Both the position numbers and the translations under genes were made by a program. A stretch of 64,000 nucleotides of DNA from a virus (taxonomy: Duplodnaviria; Caudoviricetes): IMG/VR virus record IMGVR_UViG_3300021431_000075, positions 320,001 through 384,000 of that record; one strand, given 5' to 3'. This document shows, piece after piece, positions 6,301-8,742 of the stretch (position 1 is its first letter; the number at the start of each line of letters is the position of its first letter). Below the pieces are notes generated by a model, which was not told the DNA's origin, did no database searches, and was given only the letters and a program-made list of their open reading frames with translations.

Positions 6301-6498
6301 ATGGTTATAATTATGTCTTTGTTTAATAAGAAAGATAAGTTGGAAGTTGCCGAATGGTTTGTTGATCTGACTGGAATCTTTTGTCATTATGAGTTCTTTA
6401 CAAAAGAACTATGGAGAAAGGTTGACGGATTCAAAATGGCAGATAATGCTGAAGTCCTTGTGGCATTCCAGCATTATTGGTTTCATGTAACTTTTATG
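6301..6498 (+). pseudogene. 5' part of a gene interrupted by the TnpB-like element
   Basis: joins in frame to 8197-8325 across a TTTATG repeat, giving 108 aa. Confidence 0.65.
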
Positions 6499-7972
6499 TA
6501 TTATTTTGTGCCAAGATGTTCTTTTTGAAAGACATTTTCTTAGCATAAATCCTGTTAGACAAAAGTTTGGAGACAACTGGCTGACATGCAGCCAGAGAGA
6601 CTCGATACATCATTTTCGGGTCTGCTTTTAGAGCATAATATATTTTCCTCAAGTCTATTTCAGAGTCCTTCAAGTTAAATACTTCCATCGTTCGCTCTAT
6701 TCGTTCTCTGAAGTCGTCAACATTCGGAAACAATATGTTCTTTGTTTTTGCAAAATCATTTGCAATATACTGGTGATAATATTCGTAAGTTCTTCTTCCA
6801 ATCTCGATTGATGCAAGGCACATGTCGGGCAGATTGCAATCTCTGAACACGAAGTTGCTAACAAAGCTGCTATATTCACAAAACACTTCCAAGCACTCTA
6901 TGTCATATTTAGCGCAGTTCTTTCTTATGTTGTCAACTAAAGGTCTGCGGAGCCACTGGTTGTTTATAAGCCTGTTGAAGTTCGTTCCTTTCTTGTTGTC
7001 CTTTGTTACGATTGCAAGTTGTTCATAACCGAACAAAGAGCAACCATAGTGAACTGCCGTTTCAACAAGCGTATTCGAGACAAGAAATATCTCGTTGTGA
7101 CGCTCGTTCGTTATCTTCTTTCTCTTTCTATGACTGCTTGGTAAGTGCTGTTTTTTCAACGCATATTCTGCGTCGTTCAAATCTTTGATTGTGATTGTGC
7201 CGGACTCTACTATATGGAAATCACTATGTGATTTCCAGTCAACAACGCTCCAACCAACATAGTTGGGATTCAAGTCTATTGCAAGAACCCTGTCCTGAAT
7301 CTGCTTCGGTCTGTTAACTATCTTGACATTCTTGTAAAGTTCCTTAACTTTGTATGATATGTATACATATTGTGCATCAATCTTGTAAGTGATAGGCATA
7401 TCACCCGCAACCTGATGTTCATATAGCAGTCTTATAATTTTGAGATAATTCTTAGACAGTCTTGCAGAGAACTTAACTTCCATCCATTTCTTGCCCGGCA
7501 TTAGTATCCTAATGCCGCTTAAGTCATCAAGCAGCCTGAACTTTCTGTTACCAAAACGTCTTGCTGAACCTGAGTCTGCTGATCCTATACTGACAAGCGG
7601 AGAGAGCCTGCCGGCTCTCAACTCATCTTTTGAAACCTTGCCGCTTCTATAGTCGTTCATCAGGGACTTGCCGCCGAAGCAAGTCCGTATCTTCTTCTCG
7701 CTTGTCTTCTGAAGTTCCTTCTCTGTTTCATAAATTGCATTGCCTTCATATACAGCAGACCGCTTCAACCAAGAGTCAAGAAGATTTATGTCATTATAAT
7801 CATCAAACGAATTGTCCTTTACCGGAATTCCTTTCTCGTATTTCTTGAACGCGGAGCGTATGATGTGAGTCTGCTGTCTCCGCAAATCGGAAATCAACAT
7901 ACGGTCTTCGGTTGAATTATATTCAACCGGAATCTTGATAGTGCTGTATGTATCTTTCTGATTCTTGGACAT
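6494..7972 (-). CDS. tnpB: TnpB-like RuvC nuclease
   Basis: RuvC-I LAIDLNP, RuvC-II YEQL, YSSF..PDMCLASIEIGRR RuvC-III; no CxxC-CxxC zinc finger. Confidence 0.8.
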   Translation of the reverse strand: MSKNQKDTYSTIKIPVEYNSTEDRMLISDLRRQQTHIIRSAFKKYEKGIPVKDNSFDDYNDINLLDSWLKRSAVYEGNAIYETEKELQKTSEKKIRTCFGGKSLMNDYRSGKVSKDELRAGRLSPLVSIGSADSGSARRFGNRKFRLLDDLSGIRILMPGKKWMEVKFSARLSKNYLKIIRLLYEHQVAGDMPITYKIDAQYVYISYKVKELYKNVKIVNRPKQIQDRVLAIDLNPNYVGWSVVDWKSHSDFHIVESGTITIKDLNDAEYALKKQHLPSSHRKRKKITNERHNEIFLVSNTLVETAVHYGCSLFGYEQLAIVTKDNKKGTNFNRLINNQWLRRPLVDNIRKNCAKYDIECLEVFCEYSSFVSNFVFRDCNLPDMCLASIEIGRRTYEYYHQYIANDFAKTKNILFPNVDDFRERIERTMEVFNLKDSEIDLRKIYYALKADPKMMYRVSLAACQPVVSKLLSNRIYAKKMSFKKNILAQNNT

Positions 7973-8196
7973 TTTATGATGCTTGTTATGACATATTATT
8001 TATCTTTAAAATATTTCAATATGAAGATTAGCAAATGATTTTTTATGTTAAAAACAATTAAAAATCAATCTGTATATATATTTTTTTCAAATTATTATTG
8101 CATATTGTTTATTTAATCATTATCTTTGCATTGTGATATGAATTCATTAAAGACTGATAATATGTTTATATTCTATAACATAAAAAATAATTTATG
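6499..8196 (-). mobile_element. TnpB-only insertion element (IS200/IS605-related, no transposase)
   Basis: antisense RuvC ORF bounded by TTTATG at 6493-6498 and 8191-8196. Confidence 0.7.
8121..8128 (+). promoter_or_regulatory. outward-facing Bacteroidota-type promoter inside the element
   Basis: aatcatTATCTTTGc, similar to aatcatTATTTTTGc at 6271-6285. Confidence 0.65.
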
Positions 8197-8325
8197 AATT
8201 ATAATCACAAGTTCATCAAGTACACTTCTGCTTGCGGAATGTTATGGTTTGCTGAAACAAGCAAGGACGGCTATGAAACATACATCAAGCGGTTCCAGCC
8301 TGTGATAGATGTTTATGAATCATAG
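8194..8325 (+). pseudogene. 3' part of the interrupted gene (43 aa, has its own ATG)
   Basis: MNYNHKFIKYTSACGMLWFAETSKDGYETYIKRFQPVIDVYES. Confidence 0.6.
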
Positions 8326-8346: not shown

Positions 8347-8742
8347 ATGGAAGAACTGAATAAGAAAAGACTTGCTGATTTGGCAAGCAGACTGTTTTCC
8401 AGAACGAAGATAACTTGGAATGGAAAAGATGCGGTCGATTTGACACCTGATGAATTTTCAAACATTGTTAAATGCAACGACTTTAGTTGGAAGCCGTTTC
8501 TCCGTTCATTGAAAACGATGACAGATGAAGAGAAACTTGAACTGAAAAGCGTTTATGATGCTGAATATGTGACAGATACATCTATATGTTTTTTAGAAGG
8601 CGGAACATTGGAAGAGTATCTTTCAGACATATCTTTTAGATTTTGTTCAGAACTTACTGACTGGCTTGTTGCACATCGTTTTGATTGTCATGGATTAATT
8701 CCAGACGGAAATGCGATCGAAGCGCCTGATGGTATGTATTGA
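8347..8742 (+). CDS. hypothetical phage protein (PFLR..MTxEEK type)
   Basis: paralog-like to 15304-15747. Confidence 0.8.
   Translation: MEELNKKRLADLASRLFSRTKITWNGKDAVDLTPDEFSNIVKCNDFSWKPFLRSLKTMTDEEKLELKSVYDAEYVTDTSICFLEGGTLEEYLSDISFRFCSELTDWLVAHRFDCHGLIPDGNAIEAPDGMY

Follow-up and report, generated by a model that had tools for sequence, protein, structure and literature searches.

A tnpA-less ISCaje4-like element of the IS607 type interrupts a small gene of a 673-kb phage

Results

An inserted element splits a small phage gene

We analysed a stretch of 64,000 nucleotides (the window) that comprises bases 320001-384000 of a 673,114-bp virus record, IMGVR_UViG_3300021431_000075 (Caudoviricetes). 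The record has direct terminal repeats and a G+C content of 40.7%. At 6485..8203 on the minus strand of the window (equivalently, 6487-8205) there is an inserted element of 1719 bp, a length that includes the AT dinucleotide at one of its two ends. The element encodes a TnpB-like protein of 492 amino acids and lies antisense to a small gene, which it interrupts. The 5' part of this gene is at 6301..6484 on the plus strand, and its reading frame runs on into the element and terminates at 6528; the 3' part (HKFIKY...) is at 8206..8325, also on the plus strand. The ATG at 8194, which starts an open reading frame (ORF) of 43 amino acids, belongs to the element.

The intact form of the gene is present in relatives. 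A search with the N-terminal fragment found P0270, a protein of 103 amino acids that is 90% identical to the fragment. The gene for P0270 is found on six syntenic contigs, where WG-repeat genes precede it and genes for proteins of 184 and ~830 amino acids follow it; the two halves are not separate genes in these relatives. Across the insertion point, P0270 reads ...AFQHYWFH|HKFGMYTS.... In a DNA comparison with these contigs (L014-L019), the empty allele is GGTTTCAT|CATAAGTTC, and the window has GGTTTC-AT-GTAAC...TTATA-AT-CACAAGTTC. According to the empty allele, the restored protein would be ...HYWFH-HKF.... Scans of both halves of the gene against Pfam, NCBIfam, and PHROG gave nothing usable.

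An earlier reading of this locus from its letters alone (the sequence-only reading) had proposed that a mobile, TnpB-like RuvC insert without tnpA splits a phage gene and that an empty allele should be sought in related genomes. The six syntenic contigs bear this out. The same reading had placed the junctions at a 6-bp direct repeat, TTTATG. This hexamer does occur at 6493..6498 and at 8191..8196 (both on the plus strand), and deleting 1698 bp between the copies does leave an open frame (66 + 42 = 108 codons). However, the copies lie within the right and left ends of the element, respectively, each 8 nucleotides (nt) inside the end. In the restored peptide that had been proposed (..WFHVTFM-NYNHKF..), VTFM and NYN are residues of the element, and the stop codon that was thought to lie in the junction (6494-6496) is 8-10 nt inside the right end. 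The hexamer occurs 76 times in the window, as compared to 64 +/- 7 expected, and there are three further plus-strand copies inside the insert. At the right end, it reads CATGAA rather than CATAAA in three of the first six close copies.

We also found a third allele of the small gene. The protein P0271 (L095:1017-1316) matches the intact gene up to ...TTTCACCATAA and is wholly divergent thereafter. The divergence begins 5 nt past the AT that the element used, and the contig stops 120 nt later. Either a second insertion, almost at the position of the first, or an assembly join could account for this; a search of this genome with the divergent part found no match.

The ends of the element share an AT dinucleotide with the empty site

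The borders of the element are based on the empty site, on an alignment of three close copies from this genome, and on the ends of six close copies. Homology among the three genomic copies begins at 6485 (ATGTAACTTT...) and stops at about 8204 (...GAATTATAA), which is 8 nt beyond the TTTATG junctions on both sides. Read in the sense of tnpB, the element is 5'flank-AT-TATAATTCATAAATTATT ... AAAAGTTAC-AT-3'flank. The AT at the right-end junction (6485..6486) is the candidate 2-bp crossover, and the empty allele contains a single AT; the AT at the left-end junction is at 8204..8205. The right-end dinucleotide is AT in nine of nine close copies. At the left end, it is AT in L001, L005, L098, and apparently L007 and GT in L002, L003, and L006. 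In the close copies, the general form is flank-(AT or GT)-TATAATTCATAAATTATT ... (G/A)TTACAT(G/A)AAAGTTAC-AT-flank. A second subfamily from IMG/VR has the form AT-GAATCC ... AAAAACAATACA-(AT or GT), with junction pairs of AT/AT or AT/GT.

We found no terminal inverted repeats when we compared the ends (TATAATTC... and ...AAGTTAC), and there is no target-site duplication: the occupied and empty sites have only the AT in common. Near the right end, a 7-nt unit is directly repeated at a spacing of 11 nt (ATACAT...GTTACAT here and GTTACAT twice in most copies). These junctions fit a 2-bp (AT) crossover by a serine recombinase, and the GT variants would be mismatched crossovers that replication fixed. 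Position +2 is A in all nine right flanks, and likewise in the AT-TA junction of the element's own circle, which suggests a weak target preference.

The left end (7973..8203, minus strand) is a non-coding region of 231 bp, where autonomous relatives have tnpA. Within this region, L002 (copy 2) and L005 lack ~80-90 bp that the window copy, L003, and L006 retain; elements with the deletion are 1638-1641 bp long, versus 1719-1725 bp without it. For the sister copy at 163 kb of the genome, we determined a length of 1725 bp and the corresponding ends. When we searched the genome for ORF-less copies of the element ends, only the elements themselves matched. As a side observation, the 12-mer TTTATGAATTAT is found at the start codon of tnpA in an autonomous relative (L007:2276-2292) and, in the tnpA-less copies, recurs at the left terminus (8191-8202 in the window), on the opposite strand relative to tnpB. 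This sharing may be due to chance or to a common TnpA-binding motif.

The element encodes a divergent TnpB-like protein

The only gene of the element (6494..7972, minus strand) encodes 492 amino acids and has no significant match in Pfam, NCBIfam, or PHROG, nor in the PDB by phmmer. Its homologues are numerous: there are 1588 in a set of 5.8 billion proteins (726 representative clusters at 50% identity), many of them on contigs of 100-670 kb. The nearest cluster in the ESM Atlas has 8041 members and is mainly viral. Some homologues have a match to PF27229, which the Atlas names SSO2105_N.

The structure places the protein with TnpB and Cas12. An AlphaFold2 model from 27 homologues has a pLDDT (predicted local distance difference test) of 84.6 and a pTM (predicted template modelling score) of 0.80. 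The Foldseek matches of this model include AsCas12f, OsCas12f, Cas12k, ISFba1 TnpB, and ISDra2 TnpB, with E values of 2e-10 to 8e-7 and a probability of 1.0. The family profile also has a weak match to AsCas12f over RuvC-II, with iEeLn aligned to MEDLT, peYSS aligned to PQYTS, and the RuvC-II glutamate aligned. When we used hhalign to compare the family profile to the same genome's canonical TnpB as a single-sequence template, no alignment resulted.

The RuvC triad is intact, as the sequence-only reading had proposed. D233 (AIDLNPNY), E317, and D383 (LPDMxLASIEIGRR) are invariant in the 27 homologues, and in the model they are on a strand, at the end of a strand, and at the start of a helix, respectively, which is their placement in the RNase H fold. 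The missing zinc finger is also confirmed. There is no CxxC in the whole protein, neither PF01385 nor PF07282 (the zinc-finger TNB domain) matches it, and only about 12 residues separate the YSSF motif from D383, where TnpB proteins have their C4 zinc finger. A canonical IS607 TnpB elsewhere in this genome has both the OrfB_IS605 domain and a Cas12f-like TNB domain. Finally, the tail of roughly 100 amino acids is real (~109 residues follow D383), and its last ~25-30 residues, which have low pLDDT, are probably read-through. Overall, we read this protein as a very divergent TnpB with the WED/REC/RuvC fold, an intact D-E-D triad, and a loop of ~10 residues in place of the TNB module.

The gene has been maintained. 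All of the close copies that we examined retain the full frame of 492-493 amino acids, amino-acid change is well under synonymous change in the core of the gene, and the alignment has conserved residues along the entire protein. We note that a distant autonomous copy (33% identity; L004, G000:C1:73648-77781) has ISIDDV at the family's RuvC-II glutamate (xxExL), which may be an E-to-D change.

Autonomous relatives have a serine recombinase upstream

This genome has three close copies of the element (protein identity of 86-88%) and one distant copy (33%). The window copy and its two sisters all lack tnpA, and there is no autonomous copy of their subfamily in the genome. By contrast, in another close copy (L007, 86% identical) a protein of 225 amino acids is encoded directly upstream on the same strand. 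It has a MerR-type helix-turn-helix (HTH) followed by a resolvase catalytic domain, which is the domain order of IS607 TnpA. A serine recombinase is also directly upstream in relatives of 52% and 47% identity, in about 10 of 72 IMG/VR loci, and in the 33% copy in this genome (loci L007, L092, the P0027 contig, L026/27/45/47/57/58/62/64/72, and L004/L008), and ISCaje4 has a remnant. (A single-protein query found no relatives in IMG/VR; a family alignment was needed as the query.) None of the relatives has an adjoining gene for a Y1 TnpA: any neighbouring transposase is a resolvase, and the sole Y1_Tnp match in the genome is ~190 kb away. The sequence-only reading was thus right that this element lacks tnpA, as do its sisters, but the lineage is not intrinsically TnpA-less, and the IS200/IS605 framework that was implied is wrong.

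A tblastn search of GenBank phages found matches in the Prevotella Lak phages A1, A2, B1-B9, and C1, with up to five matching places per genome, and in Campylobacter phages. In this and other huge phages, the element is multi-copy and at differing sites. The homologue in Campylobacter phage CP220 is annotated as "ISCaje4 transposase TnpB" and lies within the 1714-bp ISCaje4 repeat region (PMC2853527), which also carries a resolvase-like remnant of 80 amino acids. Because relatives carry the serine recombinase and the ISCaje4 TnpB aligns end to end and likewise has no CxxC, we assign the window copy, by sequence comparison, to an IS607-type lineage for which ISfinder already has a name (ISCaje4-like) and regard it as a derivative that lacks tnpA. 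Separately, one 88%-identical copy (L096:308-790) has, directly upstream, an ORF of 160 amino acids without any Pfam match at the position where tnpA or the usual left end would be.

The 3' end of the element resembles a guide-RNA scaffold

The last ~44 codons of the TnpB-like gene overlap a candidate omega-RNA scaffold (6485..6625, minus strand). Among six close copies, synonymous divergence is 0.08-0.12 in codons 406-465, as compared to 0.23-0.33 through the gene's core (0.25-0.30 as a general figure for the rest). The ORF of L092, the 52% relative, is ~90 nt shorter at its 3' end, and nucleotide homology still reaches the right end, so the constraint at the 3' end is not due to protein coding.

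We built a covariance model (R1) on the last 141 nt of the element. The motif was found at the 3' end of the gene, on the gene's strand, in 43 of 68 distant loci; it has no match in L004. The predicted structure has helix 1 at ~6599-6622, helix 2 at ~6577-6595, and then a long 3' stem. In the R1 alignment, 91% of the cells are paired, versus at most 50% if the partners are slid by 1-3 columns, and none of 500 shuffles reached the observed value. For example, a Ser codon (TCT/TCG) pairs with an Arg codon (AGA/CGA): the pair is U-A in 26 sequences and G-C in 11, and none is mixed. An alignment made with R1 is biased towards its own structure, and we repeated the test with MAFFT and RNAalifold on 20 sequences, including ISCaje4. 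This recovered helix 1 (8 bp) and part of helix 2, with compensatory changes. RNAalifold found no covariation in the six close copies because they are too similar. The ~140 nt at the 3' end, with two covarying hairpins, fits the scaffold of a guide RNA (omega-RNA).

Should the protein act in the manner of TnpB, the predicted guide segment would be the 3' flank at 6465..6484 (minus strand; GAAACCAATAATGCTGGAAT). Within three mismatches, this segment matches only itself in the genome. The predicted guides differ among the copies, and a search of the genome with three of them found no second target, only the elements.

Discussion

A non-autonomous copy with a putative homing nuclease

We propose that 6485-8203 is a non-autonomous (tnpA-deleted) copy of an ISCaje4-like, IS607-type element whose protein would act as an RNA-guided homing nuclease, and we give this reading as a whole a probability of roughly 0.8. 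A serine recombinase would have placed the element in the 103-amino-acid megaphage gene, in antisense, by exchange at an AT dinucleotide, with neither a duplication nor inverted repeats as a result. The 3' ~140 nt, together with the adjoining flank, would be transcribed into an omega-RNA. Guided by this RNA, the protein would then cleave the vacant AT site (...GAACTTGTG-AT-GAAACCAATAATG...) of a sister or co-infecting genome, which recombination would refill with the element ("restorative homing"). The setting for this in a lytic megaphage would be its replicating or co-infecting genomes, and reaching new sites would need TnpA to be supplied in trans. The window copy is unable to mobilise itself any more; what it retains is a TnpB-like gene under purifying selection, along with a conserved, structured 3' RNA. 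By analogy with the TnpB proteins of IS605 and IS607 (reviewed in PMC13565253), the TnpB-like protein would most likely function as an omega-RNA-guided nuclease that restores or spreads the element, and RNA-guided homing is plausible.

Several observations weigh against this proposal. The left-end dinucleotide is GT in three close copies, so the crossover must tolerate a mismatch, and the termini are AT, versus the GG that is typical of IS607 (PMC6188088, PMC13565253). Among the three genomic copies, protein divergence is already 12-14%. The genome has only one TnpA related to the lineage; it shares 54% identity with the TnpA of the autonomous relative and belongs to an element with different ends. 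The single-sequence RNA fold is not significant (z = -1.4); an Rfam scan of both strands was empty, including for the IS607-associated RAGATH-18; and seven left flanks show no clear transposon-adjacent motif (TAM).

The sequence-only reading had favoured a stand-alone, TnpA-independent homing element of the IS200/IS605 type, bounded by TTTATG, with TTCAT as its TAM and AAAAGTTACATGAAACC as its target. The absence of tnpA from the window copy and both sisters, the intact triad, and the covarying 3' hairpins (which fit a guide RNA) would all agree with this, and the persistence of TnpB-only elements is known (PMC10691335, PMC13565253). We nevertheless consider it improbable: the empty allele and the comparison of copies refute the borders, the proposed TAM and target are mostly element termini (with the target being right-end sequence that is common to all copies), the TnpA of relatives is a serine recombinase rather than Y1, and the copies occupy many unrelated sites, a distribution that cannot arise by homing alone. 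The suggested stand-alone homing between co-infecting phages may occur. That the element is a dead relic, which was mobilised once by a serine TnpA and whose TnpB-like ORF has no function in this phage, also seems unlikely to us. The divergence among the copies and the lack of an autonomous one of this subfamily in the genome would be expected of a relic, but the full frames, the low rate of amino-acid change in the core, the catalytic residues that are invariant in 27 homologues, and the conservation throughout the protein would not.

Repurposed relatives of TnpB exist in phages (PMC13418256), and the loss of the zinc finger might alter activity, so we considered a domesticated RNA-guided regulator or a defence or counter-defence factor (similar to TldR or Cas12). 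This is very unlikely: the RuvC triad is complete, which it is not in TldR; neither a CRISPR array nor a fixed genomic context accompanies the gene, and the copies, at differing sites, have precise element ends; and the predicted guide is the flank, which has no second target in the genome and differs among copies. We give even less credence to an IStron-like element that is spliced from the host transcript. In its favour are the position within a gene and a length divisible by three. Against it, a search of both strands found no group I or II intron or other Rfam family at E <= 1, the element runs antisense to the gene that it splits, and there are stops in the frame (the ORF that enters the element ends at 6528).

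Comparison to known systems

The closest named system is ISCaje4 of Campylobacter phage CP220 (Timms et al. 2010, PMC2853527), which was filed in 2010, with an ISfinder name, under IS200/IS605 (IS608 subgroup). Its TnpB is 38% identical to the window protein over 92% of the length and shares the motifs IDLNPNYIG, YSSFIGN, LPDxxLASIEIGRR, and YRVSL, the absence of CxxC, and hairpin 1 of the 3' RNA. ISCaje4 is similarly ~1.7 kb long and lies in a large virulent phage, with the resolvase-like TnpA remnant upstream. Unlike the window copy, it retains the 80-amino-acid TnpA fragment, its annotated ends are AATGG...AAGGT, and it is from a different phage group.

In IS607, exchange takes place over a 2-bp sequence (GG) that is common to the ends and the target, there are subterminal direct repeats, and there is no target-site duplication (PMC6188088). 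The family also features GG at the termini and the target, a G-rich TAM, and the RAGATH-18 RNA (PMC6188088, PMC13565253). Our element is like IS607, IS1535, and ISC1926 (PMC6188088, PMC4058570) in that, in its autonomous relatives, tnpB is preceded on the same strand by the gene for a serine recombinase whose HTH is N-terminal. It is also like them in having no terminal inverted repeats or target duplication, in having the same dinucleotide at both ends and in the target, and in its direct repeats near the end. It differs from the textbook IS607 in that the crossover is AT (sometimes GT) rather than GG, in lacking the Pfam signatures of OrfB_IS605 and TNB and any match to RAGATH-18, and in the loss of tnpA from this copy; the lineage as a whole differs in its missing zinc finger and its distinct 3' RNA.

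As compared to canonical TnpB and Cas12f proteins (ISDra2, 8exa; ISFba1, 8iaz; AsCas12f, 8j3r), the overall fold is shared, with D, E, and D on the canonical strand, strand, and helix and a YSS/YTS motif after beta-5, and the ORF ends within a candidate gene for a structured RNA. On the other hand, sequence identity is ~12%, the C4 zinc finger/TNB is absent, and there is an extra C-terminal region of ~100 residues that is partly a read-through by-product of the RNA end. Like the family here, some TnpB branches in a survey of TnpB and Cas12 are reported to have lost the C4 zinc finger, and enrichment in viruses is reported as well (PMC10691335). One of these, RIIIr-4, has a histidine at the RuvC-III aspartate (PMC10691335), whereas the family in the window keeps an invariant aspartate there (D383).

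The outcome that we propose for the window element resembles that of the Seg and Mob proteins of T4, which are free-standing phage homing endonucleases that spread into co-infecting genomes by cutting the empty allele. Unlike the window element, Seg and Mob recognize DNA by protein alone, have unrelated folds, and have no transposon ends.

Significance

This is a clean, fully delimited natural example of the IS607 type in a 673-kb phage, with both the empty and the occupied alleles known. Overall, it is a real, well-delimited, and essentially ordinary transposon insertion, and it belongs to an under-annotated branch of a known family. The lineage is known but barely characterised: a literature search found no paper that describes its AT crossover, its missing zinc finger, its invisibility to Pfam, or its 3' RNA. 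The conceptual gain is modest because TnpB-only derivatives and restorative homing have already been described (PMC10691335, PMC13565253). The insertion does expose a large, almost unannotated lineage of TnpB that the Pfam models for TnpB do not see. One practical result is that "hypothetical proteins" from Lak phages and other huge phages can be given a name in annotation. In enzyme discovery, this clade offers a candidate compact guide-RNA nuclease for AT-rich targets.

A broader conjecture is that the ISCaje4-like clade without a zinc finger is an active RNA-guided nuclease for AT-rich sites that persists in huge phages mainly as TnpA-less copies, spread by guide-directed homing between co-infecting genomes. 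We hold this only tentatively and would sooner expect it to fail in some part. If true, it would amount to a phage "gene drive" with a compact nuclease (~460 amino acids), no TNB zinc finger, and a new class of omega-RNA.

Other features of the locus and the genome

The small gene in the window terminates sooner (…DVYES) than P0270 does (…DAYEAWKLRQR). Between the interrupted gene and the gene for the 184-amino-acid protein there is an ORF of 131 amino acids (8347-8742 in the window). A pattern search of IMG/VR found no relative of this ORF, and it is missing from the syntenic relatives L014, L015, and L018, in which the 103-amino-acid gene directly precedes the 184-amino-acid gene.

Elsewhere in the genome (at 117-119, 133-135, 174, 198-200, and 308-309 kb), there are five matches to TnpB of the OrfB_IS605 type, six matches to resolvases, and one match to a Y1 transposase, with an in-frame TGA. 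This megaphage therefore hosts several distinct IS605/IS607 lineages beside the four copies without a zinc finger.

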